DNA of 64,000 nucleotides from Candidatus Thorarchaeota archaeon. Its GTDB lineage: Archaea; Asgardarchaeota; Thorarchaeia; Thorarchaeales; Thorarchaeaceae. Below the pieces are notes generated by a model. The model did no database searches. It was given only the letters and a program-made list of their open reading frames with translations, and was not told the DNA's origin. Positions 3,617 to 63,538 of the stretch are shown in pieces. Every line of letters begins with the position of its first letter. Position 1 is the stretch's first letter. Location of the stretch: assembly GCA_030612365.1 (NCBI GenBank), contig JAUWOA010000002.1, positions 425 to 64,424 on the forward strand. Reading direction: 5' to 3'. The position numbers and the translations under genes were made by a program.

Positions 3617-4205
3617 TTCTGCTAGTAGTCAGCTGAGGTATGTCGTGCCTGGAGCTGTTGGCGCAGCTTGGTCACTCAGGATGGCCCTTGACCAGTCATA
3701 TCAGGTTGTTCTTGAGTCGACAATAGGGCTGTTCCTCCTGTTGGTCGCCTTTGTGATATACATGAAGGGATGTGAAAAGAACCTTCTACTCTGGAACAAC
3801 GATACTGCGGTTCTCGCCACTGTAAAACCTCTCACAGTGGAAGTGTGCGCAGCCCGACTCATGACCAGTGTCCCGCTTGGGATTGACCTAAGCTATTCCG
3901 CGGGTAGAGTCCTTGAAACCATGACAATCAGGTTCAATGAGGAAAAGAATGCAGAACTGCGGTTCTTTGTCTGTCGACCTTTGGGACGTGGGGTTACACG
4001 CGTAGGCATGATGGTGGTTCGTCAAGCACCAAACATGCGTAGGTTGGCGTCTGTTGTTAAGAAACTGTCAGAGAAGGTGCTGGAGGATGTAATGGTCTTG
4101 GAGAGTGCTCTGCGCGCAGCCTATGCCCATATGCCCATTGCACGAGCGGAGCTAGATGATATCGCTCTCATAAACTCTGGAGGTGTGGATTTCGTTGTCA
4201 ACTGA
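3606..4205 (+). CDS. hypothetical single-pass membrane protein
   Basis: 199-aa ORF overlapping the XPD stop. One hydrophobic helix (IGLFLLLVAFVIYM). No catalytic motif. Confidence 0.5.
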   Translation: MAFNSASSQLRYVVPGAVGAAWSLRMALDQSYQVVLESTIGLFLLLVAFVIYMKGCEKNLLLWNNDTAVLATVKPLTVEVCAARLMTSVPLGIDLSYSAGRVLETMTIRFNEEKNAELRFFVCRPLGRGVTRVGMMVVRQAPNMRRLASVVKKLSEKVLEDVMVLESALRAAYAHMPIARAELDDIALINSGGVDFVVN

Positions 4206-4482
4206 GGTGCAAGCCCAGATCACAATCCCCACATCGCTACGCCCTCAGGCTGTCATGGACTCTTTGTCAATTGGCCATGGTTACAGTTGGATTGTTCTTG
4301 TTCCTACGCCAATGAGGATAGCTCATGGAAGCACATCGTGCGGGGACATGCCCGAGCTACTGATTGTAGGCAAGACCCTCCTGACGAGCGGGGGAAATGA
4401 AGTTTACATTGGCCGCCTGAGGAGGATGCTTGAGGTGTTGTCGGGCACTGTTGTGAAAGTGCGGAGGGATAGCGATGTCTAA
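4183..4482 (+). CDS. hypothetical small protein
   Basis: Fills the gap between the flanking genes and overlaps both. Alternative ATG at 4255. No motif recognised. Confidence 0.35.
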   Translation: MWISLSTEVQAQITIPTSLRPQAVMDSLSIGHGYSWIVLVPTPMRIAHGSTSCGDMPELLIVGKTLLTSGGNEVYIGRLRRMLEVLSGTVVKVRRDSDV

Positions 4483-9081: not shown

Positions 9082-10888
9082 GGAAGAAATGCCAATACAT
9101 AAGGCTGAGGAGTCCAAGAGTCCCAAAGGAGAATCGAAGACTTACGATATAGTGGAGGTCCTAAAGGCTACTGACCACCTAACCCATGTTTCCCCCAATG
9201 GGCTGGTGTTGGGAGTAAGGGTCTCGGGGATTTCAGGGGCAAGAGGGGTCCACGTTGAGATTGTTCATATACTGGACCTTAGGAATGCGGTCTTTGGCAA
9301 GGGTGGTTTTGCCTTGCAGGCATCGGTTCTTGAGAGTGTTAACAGGGGACTCCCTAGCCTCTTGAAGGACGTTGGGCTTCGAGAACGATTGGAGGCGACA
9401 TCACCGTTGACCCCTTGGGGACGAGTGCCCATGCGTACTCTGCGTTCTGCGTCTGGCAAGCGAAAGTCCTTGGTTTATGAAACCAGACTTGTCTACGTTG
9501 TGACTCAGGATGTCCGATCCTCGGCAGACCTGAGCTGGTTGACTGCAAATGAACGGGTGGTCAGTGTGCACGACTTTTCCCTTGCTAGAAAGAGCGACGC
9601 AAGAACCATTCTGCCCGACCTCGAGAAGAGCCTAATCGTGGATAAGTGGGATGGTTTCTCAAGGGCTATCCGGAATGGATGGTACGGAGTGCTAGCGGCT
9701 GGGGCCAGTGTACTCGGGGGTGTGACATCCCTCATGGTCCTGTTATCGAACTCAGGCAACCTCACTGTACCATTGGCCTTTATGGGGGTGTGTGGAGCGG
9801 GAGCAGCATGGCTACTCAAGCAGTCCCACAATGGGCTAAACGAGTTCCGCAAAATAATCGAGAGTGAACAAGCAGGAGTTGCATCTCTTGGAGATAGGAA
9901 ACGTGTAGCGGCTTCGATAAAGAATAATGAGAAGAAAATTAGGCTCATTGGCGACCTGAGCTTTGTGATATCCCCCTTAATGGCGTCAGCATCGAATAAC
10001 CTTGAAGATAGCGACGTTAACGGTGCCGTAGTGCTTGCAGAAAGGGTCTTGGATGAACTCGTAAGGCTCGCTCCATCTGATGAAGCCAAGAAGGGCATTG
10101 TGACCGGGGACGCTGGGATTGAGAGATTCATTGGCGTCTTCCGAAATGTAGGCGCAGACCTGACAGAGACGGAGGAGGTTTCTCTAGCCCTTGCTTACAC
10201 CGCAGTAACAGGACATGTCACTACGCCGCTAGGGGTAGAAGAAGCCCTGACGCATATGGCAGTCTTGAATACAAGTCTGTTCAATGCAGGTGTATTGAGT
10301 CCGACAGTTAGGGGCTCCATTGATGATATGTTCATCTCGAGGGCATTTCATGTAATCATTGACGAGTTCGGTGCAGATCTTGCCAAGCCAGAAGAGGAGA
10401 TTGTGCAGACCGTTGAGGGGGATGACTCTGGCATGGAGGAGCTAATTGGGGACATTGCAAAGTCCGGTCCGGTTTCAGAGGAACACGAGGAGGAAGCTAA
10501 CCCCGAGGTGGAAGAAACCCCTGAAGAAGAACTGCCAGTAGGAGCTCCCGCTGAGGTGGAATCCACAAAGGATGAAACTGAAACCGATTGTGTTGAGGCA
10601 GTCGAGGTCGAACTCGCGCCTCCGAGCAAAGCGGAACCCGACGGGACCCAGAATGATACTGATAGCAAGGAGAAGCGAGAGGAAGAGGCAATTCCTGAGG
10701 TCTCAGACGATGTGACTGTTGCAGAGGAATCAGAAGCGCTTGTGGTGGCGCAGTCTTCACTTGATGAGGTAGAGAACGAAAAGGACCCCTCTACGGGGCC
10801 TGAGGCCATCAGCAGGAGGAAGAAGAAGCAAGCCAAGCAACGTGCTATGGGTCGAACGAAGCGGGAGCGTGGTAAGGTCGCAGCTTGA
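9068..10888 (+). CDS. hypothetical membrane protein with acidic low-complexity C-terminal region and basic tail
   Basis: Two TM helices mid-protein (GVLAAGASVLGGVTSLMVLL, LAFMGVCGAGAAWLL). About 130 aa of E/D-rich sequence, then RRKKKQAKQRAMGRTKRERGK. Overlaps the upstream stop. Confidence 0.55.
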   Translation: MTVTEEEMPIHKAEESKSPKGESKTYDIVEVLKATDHLTHVSPNGLVLGVRVSGISGARGVHVEIVHILDLRNAVFGKGGFALQASVLESVNRGLPSLLKDVGLRERLEATSPLTPWGRVPMRTLRSASGKRKSLVYETRLVYVVTQDVRSSADLSWLTANERVVSVHDFSLARKSDARTILPDLEKSLIVDKWDGFSRAIRNGWYGVLAAGASVLGGVTSLMVLLSNSGNLTVPLAFMGVCGAGAAWLLKQSHNGLNEFRKIIESEQAGVASLGDRKRVAASIKNNEKKIRLIGDLSFVISPLMASASNNLEDSDVNGAVVLAERVLDELVRLAPSDEAKKGIVTGDAGIERFIGVFRNVGADLTETEEVSLALAYTAVTGHVTTPLGVEEALTHMAVLNTSLFNAGVLSPTVRGSIDDMFISRAFHVIIDEFGADLAKPEEEIVQTVEGDDSGMEELIGDIAKSGPVSEEHEEEANPEVEETPEEELPVGAPAEVESTKDETETDCVEAVEVELAPPSKAEPDGTQNDTDSKEKREEEAIPEVSDDVTVAEESEALVVAQSSLDEVENEKDPSTGPEAISRRKKKQAKQRAMGRTKRERGKVAA

Positions 10889-18234: not shown

Positions 18235-21200
18235 ATGAAACGCAGGAATAGACTGACCCTACTTGTTGTATTTGGACTTATGTTGCTATGTTCAACGCCA
18301 CTCCTCGCAACCTTGCACTCATCGCTTGAGCCGCCGGGAGGACAGATAGCGACTCGACTTGAGAATTCATTCACGCGGTCAGCAGACTCCAGTGTACTTG
18401 TACAGCTGGGCTCCTACGTAATAGTGAATCTTCCTAGTGCAACCATTCCAGATAGGGGCATGGAGATTGAGAGCCTGCTGGCATCCTTCGGGGTTCATAC
18501 TCAGTTGACTACAGTCAGCGACACACTCAGCAACCCTGAAGTGATTGAGAGTGCTCATGTCGTCGTCCTTGATGCCAGTCTTGGGTCTGAAAACGGGAGT
18601 TTTGTGCCGTCGGAGTTCATTGCACTTCTTCTAAGGCACGATAGACCCGTTGTTCTAATCGGGCGCGCGGCCTGGTTATTGCACAGACTTAGAGGGCTAG
18701 GTTCACCCTCGCAGACCGCTTCCATCAACGCCCTTTTGCAGACATCTGAGGGTCACGATGGAGCGGTCTTTCTTTCCTTGCCTGAGAGCCTAACACTGGG
18801 CGCCAGTCTCACATCTGAAACTGGGGTGTTGCTTCCAAATGACCGGGTGCAGACTGAGCGTTCAAGGCTAGAGGACCTGACCGGCAAAGGTGTGTCTGGT
18901 CAGCTTGCCCCCCTGAGACATGACGCGTGGCCTCTTGATGCATTCCTCTTCGGACCCGAGGACCCATCCCTTCTGACTACTAACGGCAGGGGACTCCTGC
19001 TGAACACCATTGCCTATGCAACAGCGATAGGCGAATCACCCACATCGCAGATGCTGATTGACTCACAGATTCCTAAAAGTGAGTTGCTTGCAGGAGGTTT
19101 CCATTACCAGCATGAGTCGATGGTTGAGTTCACGTACTATGCAGTACACTCCATGAGATCGGTGCTCGACGCAACCGCATGGACACAGTGGAGGACTGAC
19201 CATCAATCGAAAGTGCAGAGCATCCTGTCCAGTCTGTACGTTGAAACCGGTTCAGACGCTTGTTTCATGGACTCTGCGTCAGGAAGCAAGGTGAATCTTA
19301 AGACAACTGCTTGGGGGCTCTGGCTAGTTGAGGTCATGGGCCTCTCATCCCAGTTCACAGTGTCAAAGCTTGTAGCCAATCTGAGTGCCGGGCAGGATGT
19401 GTCCGGTGGCTTTAGCGATGACATGACAGCAACATTCCATATCACCGAAGCATTATTCGAGACAGGTGAGCTGTCAGCAATCAACACAGGTACTCTTGAG
19501 TCTTGGCTCAGGGACTGCGTTGTAACGGGATCGGATGCTCCCTCGAACCCAGAATACTGGGGAGGGGTATCAAAGAATCCGTCGAACATCATTCCAAAGA
19601 ACTCCTACTCGGTACAGTACGTACTGGCTCTTGAAATGCTTGAGGAATCACATCACGATCCCAGCAAACTGACAGAATGGATACATGAGGATACATCCAA
19701 CGGTGATGGCTCGTTCAATGATGTTGTGGGGCAGAGCTTTGAAACCGTCACAGGAACGTCCTCCGCACTCACCACACTCTCAGTTCTGGGAACACTCAGT
19801 AGCTCTAACAGAACTGCTGGGCTTGCATGGCTATCATTCAACCAGTTGGACTCTGGCGGGTTTGGAATGCGCGACAAGGCTTTGGATGTCGTTGCTAAGT
19901 CGCGAGAAACCGAGAGAGTCGCGCTGTGTCTGAAAGAGCTGGGAGAAACCACTGGTGACATTATCGGTGGTGTATCAGATTATTTCGCACTTGTGGAAAC
20001 CAACATGGGGTTCGAAACCATGGAGCCCCTCCCGACCCTAATGTGGAGCTACTGGGTCACCGATATCGCAAGGCTTACGCATGGCACGATTGACCATGAG
20101 CAAGCAGTTGACTACTTGGAGTCCTTCGGTGAGTGGAGAATGTATCCCTTCTGGAGCAATATGACCACCTATGCGGGGGCAGAGTACAAATCTACACAGT
20201 ACAGGACCAAGAGTGTTTGGTCACAGTTCTTCGGAGTAGGGCTTGCTGCGTCTTTGAGTGTGCAGCTCCCAGCAGGTATGGTGTCTGGAACATCCAACTA
20301 CATCAGTCAAGCACAGGACTCATCAGGCCACTACAGGAACGCTCCATTGAGCGGAAGTCCGCATATACAGTACAGTGTGGCTGCTGTCGAAGCGCTGTAT
20401 CTCATTGATGAACTTGACACAATCACATACAGGACTCAGCTAGAGTCCGCACTGCTATCGGAATACTCCTCCGGCCAATGGTCCACAGACGGATGGACCC
20501 TGATGCCCTTTGCAAGCCAACAATCTGCGATAGACTTGTTGTGTACGAGGGCAGCATTCCGACTTGGTCTGATAGATCCCACAATGGCGTCAGAGATTGC
20601 TAGTAGCATAGAGGCGAGGATTCAGTACGCTGATCTGGGGGCACTGAGCCAAGACGTAGCTACTCTTTCTCTTCTCAACTCCTCGTTCTCTATTAGTGTA
20701 AGTTCCATCGACCGCGACAATGTACTTGGTGCCCTCGGGTCTTCATCCTTCCCTGATGGTTGGTTCAACTCCACTGACCTATGGCAGCCTGCTCTTACAG
20801 CAGGGGTCTTGAAGATGATATCTGCTCTGGGACTGAGGACCCTTCTCTATGATACATCAGGAGGCTCGATATCAGCTACTGTCCAGTCAGTACCGGATGT
20901 AGGACAGATTCTGAGCCTCGATGTTGTTATCATCTCATCTCTCACTACGCACACAGTCTATGTGCAAGCCTTTGACGAGTGGGTGCGTTTTGATAACGTT
21001 GCCAACACGGACACTCTGGAAGTTCCGATCCCGAATGACGAGTCAGCCCTTGGCCCTGCAAACGTGTCAGTAATGCTGTGGGACTGGGGCGCATCCCGCG
21101 CCTTTGACGGCATCACAACGCAGGTGAGTGGTACACTTCAGGGAACTCTAGACCTTGAAACCCCAACAGTGTTTCTGAATGAGTGTGTCAATGGTACAGT

Positions 21201-24200
21201 GACATGGTCACTCACCAGCGGTGCAGACGCAGGGCTCACTGAAATTGTAATTAGACTTGGCGACCCGCCAACATATCAGGAGTGGACCTACAACGATGTG
21301 AGTCCATTCCACTTCTCTGTGCCTACAACGAGCTTCGACACAGGGACGTACAATCTCACAGTCACCCTGAACATAGAGTACTGTGATGCCCTCGTCCTCC
21401 GTGACGAGGTAGAAATTGCATCCCCTGATCTAACCTACATGCTGGCGCCAGCAGCACTCTCTGGCGATGTGGGACAAGTGATGGTCATTGATTGGTCCTT
21501 GCACTTCTTGGAGAACGATAGCCTGGTTCCAGGTCAGCTCGTGTCACTGGAGGTCAGGGATGACAACGAGTTCATCGTCCACACAGACACCAGTATCTCA
21601 ACAACAAGCCCTGGTCAGTTCCACTGGACACCATCAACGAGGGGCATCTTTGCATTCAAGGTGTTGTTTGAGCGCAATGGCACTCTTCAGTCCTCTGAGG
21701 CCTTAGGATCGGCAGACGTATTTGAGAGCATGGTCCTTGAGTGGATTGACGCAGGGACATTTGACCAACACACCACGGTATCCGTTTCTGTGCAGTTGAG
21801 GACAGGAACAGGAACGCCTCTTCCAGGACAGTCGGTCCATATCACCATAACAGCACCCTCATCCACAGTCTTGCTGGATGCCACGTTTATCACCAACAGT
21901 ACCGGTCATGTACAGGTCACATTCACATTGAACGAGAACGGAGCCTATTCCCTCGAAGCCTCGTTCGCAGGGCAAGGGTTCCTGAAGGCTTCCCAGACGA
22001 CAAACGGTCTCATATCATGGTCCGATAGCGTACTCACACTAGGTGGAGTGCCTCCTGAAGGACTGACTGAGGAGTCATGGACCTTTTGGGCTCTTCTTGA
22101 GGACGCTGCACTACTTCCCCTTGAGGGAGAGTCTGTCATAATGAGGGTCGTTCTGTTACCCTCGACAGTAGTATTTGAGCAGACTCTGCTCACCAACGCA
22201 ACAGGTTATGTGTCAGTCATGTGGTCAACCAGTACGGCAGGCTCCTACCTAGTTGAGGCTGAGTACGAAGGCACCATTTCAAGACAGGCACAATTCGATT
22301 CATCTCCCCTCCATGTGCGGATCTCCGTTAGTCTAGGAATTGAGATCTCATCGGACCCAGAAGTGAGCATGCCCGGCTGGGTCCGGATCTACGCCGAGGA
22401 GAACTGGGGTTCGCCAATAGTCGGACTGATCGTGACGCTGGTAATTAGAAACCCCGCTGATGTCGTGATCTTTGAACAGACAGCCATTACAGGTGGCTCT
22501 GGTTACGCCAACTTCTCATGGACCCCATCAGTGAGAGGGGTGAACATGATAACTACCACATCTGACAGACAGGCATGGTATGAGGCGTCTGAGGCGAACA
22601 CTACCGCGGGAGTGATGGAACAGCCCACAATCACCATAGACATTGACGAGCTCCTTGCGCCCGCCAACAGCTTTCTGACAGTATCTGTTATCGACTCATC
22701 ACTGGCAGGAGTATCAGGGGTCACTGTACGTACCATTGTAACGCTGAACGATGCCACGATACTTGACATGATGAATGTGACTGTCGGTGATGGTACGATT
22801 ATTCTGAACTTACAGCTGACAGAGCCAGGAAACCTCGGTATTGCGGTGAGCATGTCTGAGCAGGGTTGGCTTTTAGCTCAGACCAACAGCACTACTCACG
22901 CAATCCACGGTCTCACACAGATATCCGTGAGCGCACATCCGCAGCCAATAGATCAAGGAACAACATATCCGGTCAAGGCTACACTAATTGGCTGGGACGG
23001 ACAGCCCATGGTCGGTGCCCTTGTCACGATATCCGTGAGTTGGACCAATGGAATACTTGTGGACTCTGCAACTCTTTCAACCGGGATTGACGGAACTTGC
23101 ACTCTAGGTCACATCTTCAATTTGGTGGGCGACTTCATTCTCAACGCGACTTATGTTGGAACCGGACTCAACTGCACGGCCATAGACACCAATGTACAGA
23201 GGGTTCACGTTACACCGTCCCTCACGCTCACTCATGATCCCACAAGCCTTCTGGGCGATGATGTTCAGTTCCTTTGCGGGGTCTATGATTCGTTTGGTCA
23301 GTACGTGACAGGCCGGACTCTCATTCTGTCCATTATGATGAACAGTGCAATTGTCTTTGAAACCCAATTTATCTCTGGCAGCGAGATATCAATGGTGCTC
23401 TGGACACCGGCGGAGCGGGGCCTTGCGACTATCACTCTTATTCACACGGGAGATGCATTCTATCTAGATAACTCAACGGTTTCTACAATGTCCGTTCTGG
23501 AACATGTAAGCGGTACACTTGAAATAGACCCAGCACCGATTGACGTTTTTCAAACAACCACACTCACCTACACACTGGAATCCACAACCGGCCTTTTGGG
23601 GGTTGAGATAGTCTTTGAGATTCTCGGCATAGATCTTGTGCCGGTGTGGACCGAGTCCGCATTCACCAACATCTCGGGAGTCGTGGAGGTTCAGTACATT
23701 GCCAATGACATGCACGGCATCCTGATGGCTCAGGCTGGACCGTCAGAGGACCAGTTCCTCGTGGGCGGGGATGTACAGGAACAGCTGGTCGTAATTGCAC
23801 AGTGTTATGCTACCACGGAATTGGCTCCTCCTCCCGCCTCCGTTGGGAGTGCGGTGAATATCACAATCAACGCAGTGGATGACCTTAGCGAGGCTATAGA
23901 TGGTCTCTCGGTGCAGGTCACGCTCTTCGACCCCTATGGCCAATATGTCAAGTTGGGACTGTGGTCGAACCACATCACAGTTACTTTAGAGGATGGTGTT
24001 GCCTATGCGGAGTTTACACCTGAATACTCGGGACTGTACACAGTCTACCTTGACTCATCAGGTTCCGTGTCAGTGCACTCCTTCCACCACGAGAGCTTTC
24101 ACACTGTCCACACCGCGACCTTCCTAGACTTCGTGGATACCCCCTCGGAGATGGAAGTTGGCGAGTCCTTTGACGTTTCTGTGCTATTCTCTGACTACGC

Positions 24201-26061
24201 AGGCCAACCGCTTGTTGGCATGGATGTGACGCTGCTACTGGAGGGTCCGGGAGGGGTGACAATCGGTCCCGTGAACATCACAACAGATGAGAATGGACTT
24301 GTCTTTTGGAGCACTGTGCTTGACGACGCAGGTCCTTGGCAGCTCACAGCGCAGTTCGATGGTCTTGGAGTGTATCTTGCAGCTCAGGCAGTCCATGACA
24401 TTGATGTGCGAGTGGCCACAGTGGTAGAGGTGGTCTTGCTTGACACTGGCATTATAATCGCAGGAGTGACGCCTGTATGTACAACTGTCTTCTTGACGGA
24501 CTCTCAGGGGACTCCTCTAGAGGGACAGACAATAGGCTACGAAGTCTACCACGAAGCCTATGGTCTGGTGGAGTTGGGCAGCTTCATACAGTTCGGTCAC
24601 GATCCTGAGCCGTTCAACATCACCTTGGTCCGAGGGGGAAATCATACCCTTGTGTTCGTATTCGATGGAACGGAGACCTATCATCCCTCAACCGCAGCAG
24701 TGAATGTGTGGGTGCTTGGTACTAGCAGAATCTCTGTCACAGGGCCGACCAGTGTAGACAGGTCCAATGACTCGGAGCTAGTCATAGCTGTACTGGATGA
24801 AATGGACAATATGTTAGTCCTTGCTGACCTTGGTGTATCGATTACTATGAACGGTCCTGATGGCGCAGTCAACCTAACCGCGTTGGCTGACTGGCATGAG
24901 TTCGAGGTACACATTCCTCTGTGGGCACTTCCCGTGGGAGTTTACATGTTGGACATCACAGTGCTGGAGTCCACCATACGACTGGGGGATGCCTTTCTCC
25001 ACATGCTCAACATGACGGCAGAAACCACGCTAGGGACAGAGGCAGAAGACCTTAACGGTTTTGTTGGCCATTCACACTCTATCACTCTAATTCTGGCAGA
25101 TACACTGGGGGACGGCGTTGATGCCGTGGATGTCTGGGTCAGCCTCTTCGCTCCTGACGGCAGGGAGGTCTATGGGAGCCCGTTGACCTCACAGACGAAG
25201 ATTGGTAGTGTTGATGGACTGATTGAGGTTTCGTGGAATCCGTCAATGACCGGCAACTACACTCTGGAGGTCTGGTTCGAGGGTGACGATTTCAGGGGGG
25301 CCTCATGGTTCACGGTGATTGTGCTAACGCGCCACGCCACGGTGCTAGAGGTGAATTTGCCTGAGGAGGTTACCTTCCCCGCAGAACCGCAGCTCATTCT
25401 GAGCCTCAAGTCTGGGTTTGCCAAGCTAGCGGATGCTGATGTTCACCTATCTATTATGCTTGGGAATGAAACAATCTGGACGACTGTTCTGGAAACTGAT
25501 TTTAGCGGGAGGGCGTTGATAGACATCGAAAGCCTTCTTGCGGGCGAGTACATGGCACTTCTGTTCTATTTGGGGTCTGAGGTCTATGCACCCATCAATG
25601 CCTCCGCAGAGCTCAGGATACTGCCCTGTGTAGCCGTTGCAATTATCACTGTAACAGACGCCTACATCGGTTTCAATTGTTCTGTTGTACTGGGGGTTGC
25701 AGTGCAGGGTGTACCGGAGAACTGGCAGGGGACAATGCAAATCACAGTGTCCGATCCTGATGGCTCTATCATAGCGGTCACAGAAACGATTACATCCGGT
25801 TCCGAATTGAGTCTGCTCTTTGTGCCTAGATTGGAGGGCGCACATGAACTGAACATCACGATTGGCGATCTTCCTGTTATAACGAACTTCACTGATGGCT
25901 TCAGTTTCTCTGTGGTCGATGCTCCACTTGCACTGAAGTTGGATTTTGGTTTAGCGCCTCTTCTTGGTGGAAGTGGGGCTATTGCTGTCATTGGCTATCT
26001 TATCCGCAAGAAGCTAGGTGCCATGATCGACAGTCTGCCAACAGAGTGGGAGTCAACATGA
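18235..26061 (+). CDS. giant (2608 aa) secreted, C-terminally membrane-anchored surface protein: prenyltransferase-like alpha/alpha repeats + ~17 Ig-like beta-sandwich modules
   Basis: Signal peptide MKRRNRLTLLVVFGLMLLCSTPLLA. Repeated Q/D-x-SGGF-type motifs (QDVSGGFSDD, NGDGSFNDV, QLDSGGFGMR, QDSSGHYRN, SSGQWSTDGW) at aa ~290-830. Then ~100-aa repeats of the form P(L/V)xGxxV...TNxTG.a.v.w.p...G.Y. Dozens of N-x-S/T sequons. Terminal TM LAPLLGGSGAIAVIGYLI followed by RKK. Confidence 0.85.
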   Translation: MKRRNRLTLLVVFGLMLLCSTPLLATLHSSLEPPGGQIATRLENSFTRSADSSVLVQLGSYVIVNLPSATIPDRGMEIESLLASFGVHTQLTTVSDTLSNPEVIESAHVVVLDASLGSENGSFVPSEFIALLLRHDRPVVLIGRAAWLLHRLRGLGSPSQTASINALLQTSEGHDGAVFLSLPESLTLGASLTSETGVLLPNDRVQTERSRLEDLTGKGVSGQLAPLRHDAWPLDAFLFGPEDPSLLTTNGRGLLLNTIAYATAIGESPTSQMLIDSQIPKSELLAGGFHYQHESMVEFTYYAVHSMRSVLDATAWTQWRTDHQSKVQSILSSLYVETGSDACFMDSASGSKVNLKTTAWGLWLVEVMGLSSQFTVSKLVANLSAGQDVSGGFSDDMTATFHITEALFETGELSAINTGTLESWLRDCVVTGSDAPSNPEYWGGVSKNPSNIIPKNSYSVQYVLALEMLEESHHDPSKLTEWIHEDTSNGDGSFNDVVGQSFETVTGTSSALTTLSVLGTLSSSNRTAGLAWLSFNQLDSGGFGMRDKALDVVAKSRETERVALCLKELGETTGDIIGGVSDYFALVETNMGFETMEPLPTLMWSYWVTDIARLTHGTIDHEQAVDYLESFGEWRMYPFWSNMTTYAGAEYKSTQYRTKSVWSQFFGVGLAASLSVQLPAGMVSGTSNYISQAQDSSGHYRNAPLSGSPHIQYSVAAVEALYLIDELDTITYRTQLESALLSEYSSGQWSTDGWTLMPFASQQSAIDLLCTRAAFRLGLIDPTMASEIASSIEARIQYADLGALSQDVATLSLLNSSFSISVSSIDRDNVLGALGSSSFPDGWFNSTDLWQPALTAGVLKMISALGLRTLLYDTSGGSISATVQSVPDVGQILSLDVVIISSLTTHTVYVQAFDEWVRFDNVANTDTLEVPIPNDESALGPANVSVMLWDWGASRAFDGITTQVSGTLQGTLDLETPTVFLNECVNGTVTWSLTSGADAGLTEIVIRLGDPPTYQEWTYNDVSPFHFSVPTTSFDTGTYNLTVTLNIEYCDALVLRDEVEIASPDLTYMLAPAALSGDVGQVMVIDWSLHFLENDSLVPGQLVSLEVRDDNEFIVHTDTSISTTSPGQFHWTPSTRGIFAFKVLFERNGTLQSSEALGSADVFESMVLEWIDAGTFDQHTTVSVSVQLRTGTGTPLPGQSVHITITAPSSTVLLDATFITNSTGHVQVTFTLNENGAYSLEASFAGQGFLKASQTTNGLISWSDSVLTLGGVPPEGLTEESWTFWALLEDAALLPLEGESVIMRVVLLPSTVVFEQTLLTNATGYVSVMWSTSTAGSYLVEAEYEGTISRQAQFDSSPLHVRISVSLGIEISSDPEVSMPGWVRIYAEENWGSPIVGLIVTLVIRNPADVVIFEQTAITGGSGYANFSWTPSVRGVNMITTTSDRQAWYEASEANTTAGVMEQPTITIDIDELLAPANSFLTVSVIDSSLAGVSGVTVRTIVTLNDATILDMMNVTVGDGTIILNLQLTEPGNLGIAVSMSEQGWLLAQTNSTTHAIHGLTQISVSAHPQPIDQGTTYPVKATLIGWDGQPMVGALVTISVSWTNGILVDSATLSTGIDGTCTLGHIFNLVGDFILNATYVGTGLNCTAIDTNVQRVHVTPSLTLTHDPTSLLGDDVQFLCGVYDSFGQYVTGRTLILSIMMNSAIVFETQFISGSEISMVLWTPAERGLATITLIHTGDAFYLDNSTVSTMSVLEHVSGTLEIDPAPIDVFQTTTLTYTLESTTGLLGVEIVFEILGIDLVPVWTESAFTNISGVVEVQYIANDMHGILMAQAGPSEDQFLVGGDVQEQLVVIAQCYATTELAPPPASVGSAVNITINAVDDLSEAIDGLSVQVTLFDPYGQYVKLGLWSNHITVTLEDGVAYAEFTPEYSGLYTVYLDSSGSVSVHSFHHESFHTVHTATFLDFVDTPSEMEVGESFDVSVLFSDYAGQPLVGMDVTLLLEGPGGVTIGPVNITTDENGLVFWSTVLDDAGPWQLTAQFDGLGVYLAAQAVHDIDVRVATVVEVVLLDTGIIIAGVTPVCTTVFLTDSQGTPLEGQTIGYEVYHEAYGLVELGSFIQFGHDPEPFNITLVRGGNHTLVFVFDGTETYHPSTAAVNVWVLGTSRISVTGPTSVDRSNDSELVIAVLDEMDNMLVLADLGVSITMNGPDGAVNLTALADWHEFEVHIPLWALPVGVYMLDITVLESTIRLGDAFLHMLNMTAETTLGTEAEDLNGFVGHSHSITLILADTLGDGVDAVDVWVSLFAPDGREVYGSPLTSQTKIGSVDGLIEVSWNPSMTGNYTLEVWFEGDDFRGASWFTVIVLTRHATVLEVNLPEEVTFPAEPQLILSLKSGFAKLADADVHLSIMLGNETIWTTVLETDFSGRALIDIESLLAGEYMALLFYLGSEVYAPINASAELRILPCVAVAIITVTDAYIGFNCSVVLGVAVQGVPENWQGTMQITVSDPDGSIIAVTETITSGSELSLLFVPRLEGAHELNITIGDLPVITNFTDGFSFSVVDAPLALKLDFGLAPLLGGSGAIAVIGYLIRKKLGAMIDSLPTEWEST
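20815..25915 (+). repeat. array of ~17 divergent Ig-like (Big/MG-like) coding repeats inside the giant gene
   Basis: Recurring units, for example PLPGQSVHITITAP...TNSTGHVQVTFTLNENGAYSLEASFAG; PLEGESVIMRVVLL...TNATGYVSVMWSTSTAGSYLVEAEYEG; PIVGLIVTLVIRNP...TGGSGYANFSWTPSVRGVNMI; PLVGMDVTLLLEGP...TDENGLVFWSTVLDDAGPWQLTAQFDG. Boundaries are approximate. Confidence 0.65.
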
Positions 26062-56664: not shown

Positions 56665-57501
56665 ATGACTGGCGGCTGCACAATCGGAGCCAAGATTGTT
56701 GGCGACAGATACCTCCTTTTCAAGAATCGTGACCTTGTCTATGAGAATTACAAAGACCAATGCATCTTCGAGGATGATATCTTCGCGGTCATTGGCATCA
56801 AATTTGGTGCAGGTATAGACATGGGTGCGTCCATTGGTGTTAACCGGTGGGGTCTTGCTGCCTGCAACTCAACCGTTCTGATTAACTCTGAAGAGGCGTA
56901 CGCTGTTCTCATGGAACGCTTATTGCGCAGCGCCAAGACTCTCAACGAGGCCTATGACATCGTAGTGAAATCCTTAGATAACGGAGAGCGATATCAGTGG
57001 GGCAATTTCGTGATTGCTACGCCTGATGAGGTTGGAGCAATTGAGATTGGCGATGGTGTGTGTGAACTCGAGCGCGGCTCATGTCCAGTCACTCGAACAA
57101 ACCATCATCTCATCCTCTCAACAAGAGATGCCCTGCTCAGAGCATCGCTTGAGGAGCGCGAAGCTGGAGGGCCCCTCAGTGCGAGTCAGAACAGAAGGCA
57201 GATTGCAGCAAGGATGCTTGAATCTGCAAGATCCACCCAGGACATAATAGAGATACTTAGCACGCACGCCAAGGGAAAGGGGTATGACTCAATATGTCGG
57301 CACAGAACTGGCGTGCGGGGTGAAGATCCGTGGTTGGGCGAAACGTCCTACAGCTACATCATTGAAGTCGAAACAAAGCCACTTAACTTCCGCATTCATG
57401 TCGCACCGGGAAGCCCATGTAGTACAACCTACCACGAGGTGCAACTTGACTTTCAAGTTTCCAGTGACGCAAAACGACAACTGGTTCGGGACTTCCCATG
57501 A
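56665..57501 (+). CDS. Cys-nucleophile Ntn hydrolase (peptidase C45 / acyltransferase-like)
   Basis: N-terminus MTGGCTIGA, then LLFKNRDL. About 280 aa. This pattern fits the C45/choloylglycine-type Ntn fold. The call rests on weak motif evidence. Confidence 0.55.
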   Translation: MTGGCTIGAKIVGDRYLLFKNRDLVYENYKDQCIFEDDIFAVIGIKFGAGIDMGASIGVNRWGLAACNSTVLINSEEAYAVLMERLLRSAKTLNEAYDIVVKSLDNGERYQWGNFVIATPDEVGAIEIGDGVCELERGSCPVTRTNHHLILSTRDALLRASLEEREAGGPLSASQNRRQIAARMLESARSTQDIIEILSTHAKGKGYDSICRHRTGVRGEDPWLGETSYSYIIEVETKPLNFRIHVAPGSPCSTTYHEVQLDFQVSSDAKRQLVRDFP

Positions 57502-58836: not shown

Positions 58837-59133
58837 CTACTTGCTTGGTGCGCCCTTCCAATCAAGAATATGCGCCATCCAACCCGCAGTTCGTGCCATG
58901 GCAAACAGTGAGGTGTTGAGTTCTGCGGGTATACCCAGAGTTGCGTAAACAGCAGCATTGTAGAGGTCCACGTTTGGATGCAGTGTCAACCCCTTTCAGT
59001 TCGACCCGGTCCAATCAAGCTGATAAGGCTAGCTATCCTTGGTCACTCACGAATGGCTTCAGGGTATGCAACAGCTGCCAAGAATTCGTGCAATCCTGGA
59101 TATTTTGTAGGTGGTCATAACATGGTGCACAGG
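58837..59133 (-). pseudogene. decayed citrate synthase family gene fragment
   Basis: Minus-strand frame reads ...PVHHVMTTYKISRIARIL..(five in-frame stops)..KGLTLHPNVDLYNAAVYATLGIPAELNTSLFAMARTAGWMAHILDW. The last ~50 codons match the citrate synthase C-terminal signature PN(V/T)D(F/Y)Y...LG(I/F)P...LFA..R..GW.AH. The upstream part resembles GFGHRVYK..DPRA but is broken. Weaker remnants may extend to ~59400. Confidence 0.55.
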
Positions 59134-59405: not shown

Positions 59406-60440
59406 GTGGTGCGACCCGGTCCAGGCTGTGCTGTTTGGGAGATCACACTGAGGTGCAATCTAAATTGCATGCATTGCGGCTCCGCAGCTGGAAAAGCACG
59501 AAGCGATGAGCTTACCACAGATGAGGCGCTTCAATTATGTGATGACCTGAAGGGCATCGGCTGTCAGGGCGTTGCGATGATGGGTGGCGAGCCACTACTT
59601 AGGAAGGATTGGCCAGTTATCGCAGAACGAGTGCGCAACGTAGGCATGGATTTGTCGATCATCACTAACGGATACAAAATCGCTGAGAGCAAATTCCAAC
59701 AAATCCTTGATATCAACCCTGAATTGGTTACAGTAAGCATTGATGGCGGGCACGCCGCTGTTCATGATAAGATTCGTGGAGTTCCGGGCTCCTTCAAGGA
59801 GGTAGTAGCAACTCTTCGTCGATTCGTGGAATCTGGTTTGCCAACTGGTGTCATCACCACTGTCCACAAGATGAACCTCAGCGAGCTTCCCACTATCCGA
59901 AAACTCTTGCTGGGCACAGGCGTAGCGTGGCAGATACAGATGGCCACCCCCTACGGACGGCTCACATATGATCATGTTCTCTCAAAGGAAGAGTATTATT
60001 CGCTAGCCCTATTCATTGCTGCCACCCGGAAGAGATACTCCAAGAAGGAGATCATGATTGCAGGTGCACACGACATGGGTTACTTCTCACGGGTTCTCCC
60101 CCCCTTGCAAGTGTATCCATGGCAAGGCTGTCAAGCTGGCATCTCAACACTTGGGATTGAGAGCAATGGAAACATCCTTGGTTGTCTTGCATTACCTCCA
60201 AAGTTCGTGGAGGGCAACATTCGCGAGCGGCCTTTGAAAGAGATCTGGAACGATGACGCTTTTTCCTCGTACACTCGCAAAGTTCGGCGGACCGACTTGG
60301 GCAGCAAGTGCGCGAGCTGTACATACAGTAAGATATGCAAGGGTGGCTGTTCTGCCGTCTCTCATTCGATGGCAGGCGGACTTCATCGGGATCCATATTG
60401 CCTTCGTTTGATTGAGGGGGAACTCAAGAAAAGCGACTGA
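59406..60440 (+). CDS. radical SAM enzyme with C-terminal SPASM/twitch domain
   Basis: CNLNCMHC (C-x3-C-x2-C) at aa 17-24, GGEPLL, ITNGY, then GCQAG...ESNGNILGC and CASCTYSKICKGGCSA auxiliary-cluster cysteines. GTG start; GGAGG at 59390..59394. Confidence 0.85.
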   Translation: MVRPGPGCAVWEITLRCNLNCMHCGSAAGKARSDELTTDEALQLCDDLKGIGCQGVAMMGGEPLLRKDWPVIAERVRNVGMDLSIITNGYKIAESKFQQILDINPELVTVSIDGGHAAVHDKIRGVPGSFKEVVATLRRFVESGLPTGVITTVHKMNLSELPTIRKLLLGTGVAWQIQMATPYGRLTYDHVLSKEEYYSLALFIAATRKRYSKKEIMIAGAHDMGYFSRVLPPLQVYPWQGCQAGISTLGIESNGNILGCLALPPKFVEGNIRERPLKEIWNDDAFSSYTRKVRRTDLGSKCASCTYSKICKGGCSAVSHSMAGGLHRDPYCLRLIEGELKKSD

Positions 60441-60484
60441 CGTCTTTGGAAAAACATATCTTCTAAGGACAACTCCATTACATC

Positions 60485-60850
60485 ATGTCATTGGTTGACA
60501 TGATTCCAGTTGGGATTGAGCTACTCCGACTTAGTGGTCGAGAGAGAGTGTACGCTATTCTATCACGGCTGTTTAAAGCTAAGCCGATATCTCCAGCATA
60601 TAGAAGAAGAATCAGGCCACTCGGCGCTAGCGTGGGATTGTCAGAGGCTGAGGTTGACGAGGTTATCAGCGGGAGTCCTAATGTTACGAGCCTTCCATTT
60701 TGGTTGAAGTGGGTTCTTGTTGTTTTCATCATCATTGTGTTGATTCTTGGTGCCATCGGGGTGACCGGGTCGTATGTGCCCTGGTTTACGAATCCGCTCT
60801 ACGTTCCCGGTACCGACTATGCAAGTATCAAGCCTAAGGATTTCTTGTAG
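60485..60850 (+). CDS. tandem family member 1: HTH-like N-domain + single TM + conserved C-terminal tail
   Basis: 121 aa. N-domain LGASVGLSEAEVDEV, TM WVLVVFIIIVLILGAIGV, tail LYVPGTDYASIKPKDFL-stop. Starts 44 nt after the rSAM stop. Confidence 0.6.
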   Translation: MSLVDMIPVGIELLRLSGRERVYAILSRLFKAKPISPAYRRRIRPLGASVGLSEAEVDEVISGSPNVTSLPFWLKWVLVVFIIIVLILGAIGVTGSYVPWFTNPLYVPGTDYASIKPKDFL

Positions 60851-60972
60851 GAATGGCCTATTGAGTTCGTAGCGTATGTCTGAAGATCAAGTGGCATTGC
60901 ACTATTCAACCAATTCCCTCATCCCTTGCGCGTTGCGCAAATATCTTATGCGAGTTAGCCTAATGTTCGTAT

Positions 60973-61305
60973 ATGCTTCTAAATAACCCCTCCTCCGTCG
61001 GACTTGACATCCTCCGCACCCGGGGCGGAGCTCGTCTATACCAATTGGTTCTTCGAATTGCGGGGGTTCCAACAATCAGGGCAATGCCCTCGAAGGAACT
61101 AGTACGTCTTGGAGCCAAGGTCGGGCTTGAAGCGTCGGAGGTTGAACAGGTTGCAGAGAACAGACCTGATGCAAACGTATTCCCCAAATGGTTGCAGCTA
61201 ATTTTGGCAATCATTGTGATTGCTGGCTCGTACTATCTGTGGCGAAGAATGACCTACCTCCCCGGGACGTTGTATGGAGCCATAGGTCCACGGGACTTCT
61301 TATAG
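60973..61305 (+). CDS. tandem family member 2
   Basis: 110 aa, collinear with member 1 (VGLDILRTRGGARLY / VGIELLRLSGRERVY; LGAKVGLEASEVEQV). TM LQLILAIIVIAGSYYL, tail TYLPGTLYGAIGPRDFL-stop. Confidence 0.6.
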   Translation: MLLNNPSSVGLDILRTRGGARLYQLVLRIAGVPTIRAMPSKELVRLGAKVGLEASEVEQVAENRPDANVFPKWLQLILAIIVIAGSYYLWRRMTYLPGTLYGAIGPRDFL

Positions 61306-61398
61306 GACTGGTCCAAAGAGCTCATCTGTATAACTTGGAAACTGGCTTGCATTACGCTAATCAACAGCTTTTATGCTTCGGAACCCGACCATCTTCTC

Positions 61399-61758
61399 AT
61401 GACTTGGAGGGAATCCATTCTCTACGAACTGAACGCAGTTCGCTTTCGACGGCTTGGTGGGCTCAAGGACTGGGTGCGCGGTTTCTTGACAACATCAGTT
61501 CTTGACACGGAGAAAGCCGAGCTGCTAGGCGCTCAAGCTTGTCTGACACCCAACGAGGTTGGAGCCGCCATGGATGCTCGAATGAGCAGAAAAGGCAGTA
61601 TCCTGTTCAAATTAACGGTAGTAGTATTCACTCTCATAATTGTGGGTGCAGTTGTTCTGGCAGACCCACTAGGTGTTTTTGGTCAATACCCCGCCACCAA
61701 TACCACGTACGTGCCGGGTACGCGCTATGGCAGCATCAGCCCAAAGGACTTCCGGTAG
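61399..61758 (+). CDS. tandem family member 3
   Basis: 119 aa. LGAQACLTPNEVGAA, TM LTVVVFTLIIVGAVVLA, tail NTTYVPGTRYGSISPKDFR-stop. Confidence 0.6.
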   Translation: MTWRESILYELNAVRFRRLGGLKDWVRGFLTTSVLDTEKAELLGAQACLTPNEVGAAMDARMSRKGSILFKLTVVVFTLIIVGAVVLADPLGVFGQYPATNTTYVPGTRYGSISPKDFR

Positions 61759-61850
61759 GGATTCGCGCATTAGCATTCGTTGATTATTCAGGACCTGTTG
61801 CGCTACGCCAACCGATAATCTTAACGGCTTTGACCCCATACTATACAACT

Positions 61851-62219
61851 ATGAATTGGATGGAACTCTGTCTGTATCAACTGGATGTGGCTTCTATCCG
61901 GGGGAGCCGCCGCTTCCTTGGGCCTATGCAATGGCTTCGCAGTTTCTTGACAAAACCAGTCCTTGAGTCAGAGAAGATCGAGCAGCTCGGTGCTCAAGCA
62001 GGTCTCACACCCAATGAGGTCCAAGACGCAGTAAGCACGCCCGCAAGCAAGGGTGAGAGCATAGTGTTCAAACTGGTTGTGGTGATTGTGTTTCTTTTCA
62101 TCTTGATTTCAGCTATCATAACGAGCCCAATAGGCGCCTACATCAACCAGGAGCTCTTCAACACAACTTACCTGCCAGGGACACTCTATGGAAGCATCAG
62201 TCCGAAAGACTTCAGGTAA
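61851..62219 (+). CDS. tandem family member 4
   Basis: 122 aa from the in-frame ATG at 61851 (the ORF-track start at 61539 overlaps member 3). LGAQAGLTPNEVQDA, TM LVVVIVFLFILISAIIT, tail NTTYLPGTLYGSISPKDFR-stop. Confidence 0.6.
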   Translation: MNWMELCLYQLDVASIRGSRRFLGPMQWLRSFLTKPVLESEKIEQLGAQAGLTPNEVQDAVSTPASKGESIVFKLVVVIVFLFILISAIITSPIGAYINQELFNTTYLPGTLYGSISPKDFR

Positions 62220-62224
62220 ACACG

Positions 62225-63538
62225 ATGCGAATCCATGTGGGCTGTGGCCCAGTCTACAAGAAGGGCTACATCAACATTGACATACTTGATACTACCGTTG
62301 CCGATCGCATCATGTCTGCATATCATCTGGAATTTCCCGATGATTCAGCTAGTCTTGTGGAGTGCATGCATACTCTCGAACACCTCGGTGCAGCGAAGAG
62401 CATCTATGCATTGGCTGAATTCTTCCGCGTATTGAAACCGGGAGGCGTTCTACTTCTAGAAACCCCCGATATAGAAGCAGCCTTTGCGAACTTCCTCAAG
62501 AATGGGGAAGAACAAAGGAAGCTCCTAATGAACTGGATCTACGGCTTGGATTCGCCAGGGATGGGGCATCGCTACTGCTTCCCCCGGGAACTGCTTAGTC
62601 GCATGTTGAAGGAAACTGGCTTCAAAGATATTCAGTTGAAAAGATTCGCAACTAAATCCGCTCAGCCAACATTGCGAGTCAAATGCAGGAAGCCTGAATC
62701 GTATGTCGCCCATCAGATTATTTCACGCATACGGCGTTCCCTGGTAGATAATGGCCTGATTGATCTTGATGACCAAGTCAGTGCACTTGATCGCGAAACT
62801 CTCATCCAATCTCTTGCATCGCTGACACATCAATTGTGTGCTAAATGGGATGAACTGACGTTGAAGCAAATGACCATAGAATCAGCGGTGCAGAATCCGC
62901 GAATGGGGCTGGCTTTCATCGAGCAACTTGAGAGCCAGATTTCTGAGTCACCTTCTCGGGTGAAGAGGTATGGACGGATTCTCGAAACGCTGGGGTCTCT
63001 TGACTTCCCTGCAGTTCTATTGCATCTCTTCATGCAGGTTCCACTACAAGTCGGAATTCAGAATCAGACGTACCTTACTGTCCGGAACATGGGGGTTGCC
63101 ACCGTCAAGAAGCTTCTTGCAGGAACAGAAAAACAAGCAGTCTTGAAGGAGCTACGACGAACACGTGCGGTGCTGTCTGACGACAAAATCCTGAGCCACT
63201 TCTCTGAAGAAGGAGTGAAGCGCCTTGCAGAGCAGAGTTTCGCTCACGGTGCAAAATCTTTTGCTAATCATGAACTGACTGAGGCTGTTCGCTTGTTCGA
63301 AGAGGCGTTCAGTCTTAATCGCGATGATCTTCTCATTACATGGAACCTAGCGCGCTTGAAGGCGGTCGAAGGAAACGGAGATGCATCAAAGAAGTACTAT
63401 GATATGACTTCGTTACTTGCCCAACGCTACAAGCAACCCTTTCGTCGAAGGATGCTCGAGCGGCTTCGCTCTGAAATCCGCCTTGCATCCGAGGGCCAGG
63501 TGGATGGCCTGACAGCACCAGTCTATCAGGCCCTCTAG
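62225..63538 (+). CDS. class I SAM-dependent methyltransferase fused to a helical (TPR-like) C-terminal region
   Basis: Motif I HVGCGP, LEHLG, post-II LKPGGVLLLETPD. About 250 further aa are largely helical, ending in TPR-like repeats (AVRLFEEAFSLNRDDLLITWNLARLKAVEGNGDASKKYY). Starts 5 nt after member 4. Confidence 0.8.
   Translation: MRIHVGCGPVYKKGYINIDILDTTVADRIMSAYHLEFPDDSASLVECMHTLEHLGAAKSIYALAEFFRVLKPGGVLLLETPDIEAAFANFLKNGEEQRKLLMNWIYGLDSPGMGHRYCFPRELLSRMLKETGFKDIQLKRFATKSAQPTLRVKCRKPESYVAHQIISRIRRSLVDNGLIDLDDQVSALDRETLIQSLASLTHQLCAKWDELTLKQMTIESAVQNPRMGLAFIEQLESQISESPSRVKRYGRILETLGSLDFPAVLLHLFMQVPLQVGIQNQTYLTVRNMGVATVKKLLAGTEKQAVLKELRRTRAVLSDDKILSHFSEEGVKRLAEQSFAHGAKSFANHELTEAVRLFEEAFSLNRDDLLITWNLARLKAVEGNGDASKKYYDMTSLLAQRYKQPFRRRMLERLRSEIRLASEGQVDGLTAPVYQAL

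Follow-up and report, generated by a model that had tools for sequence, protein, structure and literature searches.

A radical SAM/SPASM enzyme, four small membrane proteins with a shared C-terminal tail and a methyltransferase form a candidate protein-modification cassette in a Thorarchaeota genome

Gene content of the cassette

The DNA analysed here, referred to as the window, is a stretch of 64,000 nucleotides (nt) from a Candidatus Thorarchaeota archaeon (assembly GCA_030612365.1, contig JAUWOA010000002.1, positions 425 to 64,424 of the forward strand), and positions in it are counted from its first letter. Six genes lie together on one strand at 59406–63538 (+), and encode a radical S-adenosylmethionine (SAM) enzyme with a SPASM domain, four paralogous proteins of 110–122 residues, and a methyltransferase of 437 residues. 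We examined this arrangement as a candidate cassette for the modification of the small proteins. From the radical SAM gene to the methyltransferase gene, the intergenic spacers are 44, 122, 93, 92, and 5 nt. The tight same-strand packing had been pointed out in a first-pass annotation made from the letters of the window, and was confirmed, with the spacers of 44 and 5 nt being exact. A scan of the operon for sigma-70 and terminator signals gave results at chance level, using a bacterial-type model that is unsuited to archaea.

The radical SAM/SPASM enzyme (59406–60440; 344 residues, GTG start) was characterized using Pfam, NCBIfam, tblastn, and a tree. It is followed by precursor-like membrane protein 1 (60485–60850; 121 residues), in which alignments delineate a leader element, LGASVGLSEAEV (60620–60655), then a transmembrane (TM) helix, and then a tail containing the motif YVPGTDYASIKPKDF (60800–60844), with D-Y-A as the candidate X-Y-A site. 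Member 2 (60973–61305; 110 residues) has the leader element LGAKVGLEASEV (61108–61143) and the tail motif YLPGTLYGAIGPRDF (61255–61299), in which the candidate X-Y-G site is L-Y-G. In member 3 (61399–61758; 119 residues), the corresponding elements are LGAQACLTPNEV (61525–61560) and YVPGTRYGSISPKDF (61708–61752), and the candidate X-Y-G site is R-Y-G. Member 4 (61851–62219; 122 residues) carries the leader element LGAQAGLTPNEV (61986–62021) and the tail motif YLPGTLYGSISPKDF (62169–62213), again with L-Y-G as the candidate X-Y-G site. The mechanically called open reading frame (ORF) of member 4, 61539–62219, is over-extended, and the start was set at the ATG at 61851 because the orthologs P0002, P0009, and P0026 begin at or near that ATG. 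The methyltransferase (62225–63538) comprises a class I SAM-dependent methyltransferase domain (residues ~1–160) and an all-helical domain resembling tetratricopeptide repeats (TPR; residues ~161–437). All of these features are on the forward strand.

Architecture and topology of the small membrane proteins

The four paralogs are 29–38% identical overall, yet have two islands in common, the N-terminal element and the tail. The N-terminal island reads LGAxVGLxxxEV in the window and LGxxhGLxxxE[VI] in its wider form, and each of the four proteins consists of this element, one TM helix, and the C-terminal tail. Orthologs of member 1 are 78–99% identical. None of the four proteins has a Pfam or NCBIfam match at E<=0.1, and the AlphaFold2 (AF2) model of member 1, which was built from a 23-sequence alignment, has a predicted local distance difference test (pLDDT) score of 62, with four short helices in the N-terminal part, a TM helix spanning residues 72–95, and an unstructured tail. 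The helix-turn-helix (HTH)-like N-terminal domain proposed at first reading has no support, there being no family match and only short helices in a low-confidence model. In short variants of the family, the whole N-terminal part has only ~25 residues. The LGxxhGLxxxE element is present in all archaeal variants, the shortest included, and is absent from the Myxococcota peptides described below. A leader-like recognition element is a better description of the N-terminal region than an HTH domain is.

The topology of 137 family members was analysed by hydropathy and charge. The TM helix has a mean length of 21.6 residues and is followed by a mean of 28 residues. Within the 15 residues flanking the helix, Lys and Arg together average 2.37 on the N side versus 0.60 on the C side, and in 109 of the 137 proteins the greater positive charge is on the N side. 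Because the flanking positive charge sits on the N side, the predicted topology is N-in, C-out, in a tail-anchored geometry. In many members, the motif is directly preceded by Thr-rich linkers and N-x-T sequons, which fit an extracellular tail. Since the TM helix lies so near the C-terminus, insertion would be post-translational and tail-anchor-like, and this would give cytoplasmic Fe-S and SAM enzymes time to act first. The small proteins are similar to Get3/TRC40-type tail-anchored clients in having a single TM helix ~28 residues from the C-terminus and an N-terminus predicted to be cytoplasmic. They differ in that no insertion factor is linked to the cassette, and that both their topology and their route are predictions.

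Conservation of the tail motif

The near-invariant C-terminal tail that had been noted in the four paralogs is borne out by their alignment, which has 18 invariant columns, including the tail residues Y, P, G, T, Y, I, P, D, and F, and the tail consensus TY[VL]PGTxY[GA][SA]IxP[KR]DF. In the six-frame translation of the 64-kb window, the pattern Y..G[TS].Y[GAS][STA][IVL] has four matches, each in one of these genes. Where tail residues are identical, their codons often differ (5–9 per paralog pair), which indicates that the tail is under selection as a peptide rather than being the trace of a recent DNA duplication.

For the motif statistics, 139 family members were compared, with positions numbered from the first Tyr (Y1). 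Y1, G4, and Y7 are conserved in 100% of the members, T5 in 92%, D14 in 95%, and F15 in 90%. Position 8, which follows Y7, is mostly G (63%), and otherwise A (26%), S (10%), or D (<1%); in the window, Y-G is found in three tails and Y-A in one. The four window tails consist of the 15-residue motif, exactly one further residue, and the stop codon. One residue also follows F15 in 82 of the 139 members, with 2–26 residues in the others. Thus, the motif, first described as lying immediately before the stop codon, is near-terminal in the clade of the window, with one residue between, and lies further from the stop codon elsewhere.

Y1, G4, and T5 are lost in a Thermoplasmatales-like variant, in which Y7 and KDF are kept. 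The tail feature that is constant across all variants is the second Tyr in an X-Y-[G/A/S/T] context. No conserved Cys, Trp, or Lys was found in the tail core in alignments of family members, which rules out links of the sacti-, ranthi-, streptide-, and darobactin-type.

Family placement of the radical SAM enzyme

The radical SAM enzyme contains the motif CxxxCxxC at residues 17–24 and a full seven-Cys SPASM domain (Pfam Radical_SAM, E value 3e-26; SPASM, E value 2.8e-10). The two highest-scoring NCBIfam models are TIGR04103 (“nif11-class peptide radical SAM maturase 3”; 224 bits) and TIGR03913 (“GDL motif peptide-associated maturase”; 213 bits), followed at lower scores by AhbD (164 bits), NirJ (143 bits), MftC (136 bits), and PqqE (97 bits). 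All of these scores lie below the family cut-offs. Five relatives of the enzyme gave the same top-two ranking, likewise below the equivalog cut-offs. For the window enzyme and these relatives, the margin over the next family is 45–70 bits in the archaeal enzymes, and ~2 and ~35 bits in the two Myxococcota homologs. The results from tblastn analysis of 72,556 plasmids indicate ~200 bits and 33–36% identity to annotated TIGR04103/TIGR03913 members from Nostoc, Burkholderia, Azospirillum, and Aureibacter, the scores for MftC and TIGR04053 being far lower (105–137 bits).

A neighbour-joining (NJ) tree was computed with 100 bootstraps and three outgroups (MftC, TIGR04053, and one other; AhbD, NirJ, and PqqE were left out). 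Bootstrap support was 95 for the archaeal clade, 82 for the archaeal plus Myxococcota enzymes, and 100/100, against the three outgroups, for a super-clade in which these are joined by the enzymes of Nostoc, Burkholderia, Aureibacter, and Agathobacter. The signature WQ[IV]Q..P.G is common to this super-clade and absent from the outgroups, its window/splicease-type form being WQIQMATPYG. Judged by hidden Markov models (HMM), tblastn, and the tree, the enzyme groups with the splicease-type maturases rather than with the other SPASM families tested. The initial reading had left room for a cofactor, lipid, or sulfatase-maturase clade, and the enzyme falls outside all three, with TIGR04103/TIGR03913 ranking top by each method. 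Identity with AhbD or NirJ was rejected (164 versus a cut-off of 500 bits, and 143 versus 515), and no heme-pathway neighbours were seen. A sactipeptide or ranthipeptide maturase was also rejected, as the tail has no conserved Cys and the StsB, PapB, and SkfB models scored <=122 bits.

The best sequence match of the enzyme in the PDB is PqqE (E value 3e-20, full length). PqqE and MftC are homologous enzymes of the same architecture whose Tyr-centred chemistry acts on a short conserved C-terminal segment of PqqA and MftA, and the small proteins might likewise be scaffolds for a peptide-derived redox cofactor similar to pyrroloquinoline quinone or mycofactocin, either membrane-tethered or released. 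Consistent with this, the tail is strongly conserved and close to the C-terminus, as in MftA and PqqA, and the cassette is a housekeeping-like single locus across many archaea. However, the radical SAM enzyme is below the PqqE and MftC cut-offs (97 versus 381 and 136 versus 265 bits, respectively). The cassette also lacks PqqB/C/D- or MftB/D/E-like partners, including a PqqD/MftB chaperone, as well as downstream cofactor-processing genes and conserved peptidase or oxidoreductase neighbours. Its substrates would be multiple membrane-protein paralogs, and the 1–4 divergent paralogs per genome, together with the tandem-repeat precursors described below, are more typical of protein modification or of ribosomally synthesised peptides with post-translational modifications (RiPPs). 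A cofactor scaffold is, on balance, improbable.

The methyltransferase

The methyltransferase belongs to the Methyltransf_23/11 families (Pfam Methyltransf_23, E value 1.2e-11) and has a weak match to TPR_19 (E value 0.003). Its AF2 model (pLDDT 90.8) has a compact Rossmann domain (residues ~1–160) and a 270-residue all-helical TPR-like domain. A TPR-like helical extension had been anticipated, and a helical domain is present in the model. Foldseek analysis of the model returned generic class I methyltransferases only (TM-score ~0.27), and nothing informative on the helical domain or on the substrate. There are ~60 full-length homolog clusters, with the same cassette wherever the context is visible, and they are confined to Asgard-type cassettes, the lineage of locus L016, and a Myxococcota locus. 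Because the methyltransferase is absent from the variant loci L015, L048, L050, and L052, it was treated as a tailoring or recognition accessory.

Co-occurrence across genomes

A profile of the four small proteins retrieved 70 clusters among 5.8 billion proteins and 83 representatives among 1.84 billion proteins, and no Pfam domains were found in these matches. A long protein that the profile also matched, P0204, has NVPGARYGSISW repeats of the Kelch-like kind, and was set aside as a chance resemblance. No relative was found in viral contigs scanned with the same profile. The family as a whole comprises ~80 precursor clusters (50% identity), ~60 methyltransferase clusters, and dozens of radical SAM clusters in orthologous tiers. 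Scanning one genome per GTDB species with the methyltransferase recovered 23 loci, distributed among Thorarchaeota, Hermodarchaeota, unclassified archaea, and one Myxococcota metagenome-assembled genome (MAG).

All fetched loci were annotated with one script. Every archaeal locus that was reached via the methyltransferase or via distant small-protein homologs, and that had enough flanking DNA, has the order radical SAM enzyme, 1–4 motif proteins, methyltransferase. The co-occurrence of the tail motif with both enzymes, which the first-pass annotation had singled out as informative, was thus found in every methyltransferase-recovered archaeal locus with sufficient flanks. The genes that flank the cassettes vary, and include DUF3795/CCG/PFOR, PHP/SCP2/NMO, Sec23-like/acyl-CoA dehydrogenase, and GAPDH. 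Since the same gene order is found in differing neighbourhoods, the three components travel as one unit. As for small proteins standing apart from these partners, the radical SAM gene is a constant of all the variant types described below, whereas the methyltransferase is missing from the four variants named above. No protease or transporter conserved with the archaeal cassette was found across the neighbourhoods. Of the canonical features of RiPP clusters, a precursor-like layout and an adjacent maturase are therefore present in the archaeal cassettes, and a conserved peptidase or exporter is not. Overall, comparative genomics supports the original reading of the locus as a maturase, a multi-copy precursor family, and a tailoring enzyme.

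In locus L011 (JGI 3300056906 contig), a 534-residue Sec23_trunk/VWA protein is encoded at 3639–5243, immediately upstream of the cassette. This protein is of a eukaryote-signature type, and its adjacency is probably coincidental.

Variant loci

Several loci depart from the plan of the window. The family members P0184, P0199, and P0207 are without a TM helix, and have a short N-terminal element, IGKxLGLxxxDI, followed by 2–5 tandem copies, counted by pattern, of the motif Y-K-A-G-T-x-Y-[GA]-T-[IV]-S-P-K-[DE]-[LI]. In P0184, five copies are found by pattern, and HMMER matched up to 6 stretches. By their sequences, these TM-less proteins have the classical layout of multi-core RiPP precursors. 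P0184 is encoded in locus L015 next to a radical SAM ortholog 49% identical to the window enzyme, with no methyltransferase nearby; a neighbouring 442-residue protein was considered as a methyltransferase homolog and rejected, since it is not homologous. The same locus (623–9803 of a JGI 3300030616 contig) contains, along with P0184, three paralogous radical SAM/SPASM genes whose products are 45–49% identical to the window enzyme. It also encodes a 51-residue single-motif peptide, a B12-binding radical SAM enzyme, an alpha/beta hydrolase, and an Rce1-like CPBP protease, and has the look of a RiPP-type cluster of greater complexity. A B12-binding radical SAM gene adjoins the pair of radical SAM and precursor genes, on the opposite strand, both in L048 (6038–7468) and in L015 (6485–7801), two loci that lack the methyltransferase. 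This enzyme may be an alternative methylating partner.

The locus L016, from an AT-rich archaeal lineage, encodes a radical SAM enzyme of 47% identity, three proteins of 85–88 residues, and a methyltransferase homolog of 29% identity over its whole length. Its small proteins consist of nothing but the LGL element, the TM helix, and the tail. A large second tier of radical SAM enzymes (~50–55% identity, ~345 residues) includes MAGs labelled as Thermoplasmatales. In 3/3 contexts inspected, one or two proteins of ~80 residues and of the same plan are encoded upstream, and there is no methyltransferase. These small proteins have the leader element, the TM helix, and a tail of the form x-Y-[G/A/S/T]...[KR]DF, with compact cores that read PGGPVGAYYAGVSFKDF, PGYFYGGGGIRDF, or PGYYYSGGSIRDF.

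The Myxococcota locus, L040 (MAG contig JBFYZU010000239.1, 4028–10428), encodes two TM-less peptides of ~50 residues that end in PYSPGTRYGLSRRENIEG and PYSPGTYYGLAKRSNIE. These ends conform to PYSPGT[RY]YG, and retain Y1, P3, G4, and T5. They are accompanied by the methyltransferase homolog, two tandem radical SAM homologs, a GNAT protein, and an M50 peptidase of the site-2-protease family; the M50 peptidase and the GNAT protein were found beside the cassette in this locus only. Horizontal transfer or mis-binning could account for the origin of this locus.

A different possibility is that there is no enzyme–substrate relationship in the cassette, the small proteins being membrane regulators or structural components and the radical SAM enzyme and methyltransferase acting on a lipid or small molecule. 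The methyltransferase does weakly match phospholipid and quinone methyltransferases (E values 3e-4 to 1e-2). Nevertheless, the adjacency of the radical SAM gene and the motif ORFs persists across ~30–50% divergence, across domain boundaries, and even where the TM helix or the methyltransferase has been lost. Tandem motif arrays exist, as in P0184, and the radical SAM enzyme belongs with peptide and protein maturases. We regard this possibility as very remote.

Relation to splicease systems

PlpX is a subclass of SPASM radical SAM enzymes that occurs with Nif11 precursors, and which, going by the family name, we take to be TIGR04103. Enzymes of the PlpX type excise tyramine at X-Y-G (PMC11414181, PMC11626197, PMC11002830). 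The splicease systems have been described as bacterial (PMC10533398, PMC11414181), and in the binary systems a helix within the N-terminal portion of the substrate is the activator (PMC11414181).

The loci of the plasmid matches were compared with the cassette. A Nif11 precursor beside the Nostoc match ends in ...ALYGLPPELF, and the DUF1842/DUF1843 proteins of Burkholderia contain MYGVAI or PYGVAI, followed by GDL. In the Aureibacter tunicatorum plasmid pAT1 (locus L046, 1659–4429), three tandem DUF1843 genes precede one for a GDL-type radical SAM enzyme, whose annotation says no more than “radical SAM protein”, and one for a class I methyltransferase. The N-terminal sites of these DUF1843 proteins are LYAAGI, MYAASI, and PYGAGI. 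Going by these gene products, natural X-Y-A sites stand beside a splicease-type radical SAM enzyme and a methyltransferase in at least one locus, that of Aureibacter. Judging from the genes of the plasmid loci, there is at least one precedent near the closest relatives of the cassette enzyme for each of four features, namely X-Y-A sites, precursors in multiple copies, substrates of protein size, and a methyltransferase partner. The Aureibacter methyltransferase was also considered as a homolog of the window methyltransferase, and was rejected, since the two have no sequence similarity.

The splicease systems (TIGR04103, PlpX-type; TIGR03913, GDL-trio) thus include the closest named radical SAM/SPASM relatives of the cassette enzyme. 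They have substrates with X-Y-G, or X-Y-A in Aureibacter, several tandem precursor genes beside the enzyme, substrates that can be protein-sized (DUF1842, ~200 residues), and, at the Aureibacter locus, a class I methyltransferase downstream. In contrast, the enzymes are only 33–36% identical, the cassette enzyme is below the family cut-offs and without the C-terminal extension of these families, and the host is archaeal. The putative substrates in the cassette span the membrane once, and their TM helix separates the leader-like element from the core. This core is different and longer, TYxPGTxY[GA]SIxPxDF, and is not strict in having Gly after Tyr. Moreover, the 437-residue partner with its methyltransferase and helical-repeat domains is unrelated in sequence to the Aureibacter methyltransferase, and there is no conserved protease or exporter. 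By these comparisons, the cassette fails the equivalog tests for splicease membership and differs in host domain, substrate architecture, core motif, and partner enzyme.

The literature searched contained no description of an archaeal splicease or of the tail motif, Scott et al. 2022 (Chem; 939 predicted systems) being outside the search, nor any account of a precursor whose membrane anchor separates recognition element and core. The first-pass annotation had not recognised the combination as a described system. The cassette is indeed uncharacterised, although it has a recognisable closest relative in the splicease (spliceotide/GDL-trio) systems.

Proposed modification of the tails

Building on the gene linkage, the conservation of the motif, the family placement of the radical SAM enzyme, and the charge-based topology prediction, we infer as follows which proteins are the substrates, at which site and by which chemistry they are modified, in what order, and what the methyltransferase does. 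It is likely that the tails of the small proteins undergo a modification that depends on the radical SAM enzyme. The six genes would form a self-contained post-translational modification cassette, in which the radical SAM/SPASM enzyme acts in the cytoplasm on the four C-terminal tails. The N-terminal LGxxhGLxxxE[VI] element might serve as a leader-like docking or activating helix, and the target would be the invariant second tyrosine of the tail in its X-Y-[G/A] context. In the reaction, the side-chain unit of this tyrosine would be excised from the tail. The neighbouring methyltransferase/helical-repeat protein would either methylate the modified tail or hold the substrate. Subsequently, the protein would insert post-translationally, with its N-terminus in and its tail out, such that the modified tail would be displayed on the cell surface.

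Excision of the tyrosine side chain is put forward as the likeliest reaction by analogy, because the closest relatives of the enzyme are tyramine spliceases. We propose tyramine splicing at X-Y-[G/A] tentatively, and rate it slightly below an even chance. A number of points weigh against it. All scores of the radical SAM enzyme are under the equivalog cut-offs (TIGR04103, 224 versus 725 bits; TIGR03913, 213 versus 592 bits). Its alignment ends at position 343 of 412 in the TIGR04103 model and at position 353 of 477 in that of TIGR03913, and the C-terminal 70–120 residues of these families are missing. The NJ tree is limited by its small outgroup sampling. Neither a RiPP recognition element (RRE)/PqqD domain or gene nor a PlpY/RRE-like partner was found in the cassette with Pfam and NCBIfam. 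The sole precursor of locus L011 has Y-D, so Gly after the Tyr is not invariant. Furthermore, a tail on the outside would require the Fe-S enzyme to act before insertion, which is an inferred step. Finally, the two invariant Tyr residues, together with the invariant G4 and T5 of the Asgard clade, would equally suit a cross-link.

This last point leads to a second reading of the same enzyme–substrate pair, in which the radical SAM enzyme introduces a Tyr-centred cross-link or another radical modification within Y-x-P-G-T-x-Y-G-S, and the methyltransferase caps the product. Candidates include a C–C or C–O bridge involving Y1, T5, Y7, or S/T9, a three-residue cyclophane (Y7-x-S/T9), and epimerisation. 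In the Asgard clade, two invariant Tyr, an invariant G4, and a near-invariant T5 exceed what an X-Y-G splice site needs, and position 8 tolerates A, S, and D. The distance of the enzyme from the splicease cut-offs and its missing C-terminal extension point in the same direction, and related SPASM enzymes, among which PqqE is the best PDB match, cross-link Tyr. On the other hand, the Thermoplasmatales-like variant, with its 50–55%-identical enzymes, has lost Y1, G4, and T5, though the Myxococcota peptides keep them. Three methods place the enzyme closest to spliceases and not to known cross-linkers, and the core is without conserved Cys, Trp, or Lys. Such a chemistry is a possibility to be taken seriously, while falling well short of being probable.

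Returning to the order of events proposed above, we further speculate that the TM helix is functional, in that the tail is modified in the cytoplasm and is then flipped outside by tail-anchor-type insertion, so that the archaeal surface would display a protein-borne electrophile. As a whole, this picture of a functional TM helix and a surface-displayed electrophile is unlikely.

Other genes in the window

The 636-nt gap between an amidohydrolase gene and the radical SAM gene contains a 50-residue ORF on the reverse strand (58837–58989) that corresponds to the C-terminal end of citrate synthase only (Pfam PF00285, E value 1.9e-15, profile positions 306–346 of 357). This ORF appears to be the remnant of a gene or a piece of a pseudogene. 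A 278-residue protein that starts with MTGGC is encoded two genes upstream of the cassette, at 56665–57501 (+). It has a sub-threshold match to PF03417, the acyl-CoA:6-APA acyltransferase/Ntn-hydrolase family (22.6 bits versus a cut-off of 23.2), and its position next to the cassette is not conserved in other loci. A giant ORF of 2608 residues (18235–26061, +) has MG2, MG4, Big_1, and prenyltransferase-like toroid matches. By these domain matches, it is an alpha-2-macroglobulin-like protein, of the protease-trapping family, in a Thorarchaeota genome.

Significance of the cassette

From the distribution of its genes, the cassette is an uncharacterised system that is fairly widespread in archaea. 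The TM-less multi-core precursors of the P0184 type, being natural, would offer an easy entry to heterologous biochemistry. Should the proposed surface display be true, the electrophile, a ketoamide or another Tyr-derived group, would be present on Asgard and other archaea. The small proteins would then amount to a “membrane-anchored RiPP” that needs neither an exporter nor a leader peptidase, with possible roles as a covalent trap or inhibitor of proteases, whether extracellular or viral, or as a tethered cofactor. A ketoamide product would mean that these natural membrane proteins carry a pharmacophore known from protease inhibitors. The cassette would also define a precursor architecture in which recognition element and core are set apart by a membrane anchor, and would extend splicease-type, or at least radical SAM/SPASM, protein modification to the Archaea, including the Asgard lineages that are closest to eukaryotes.

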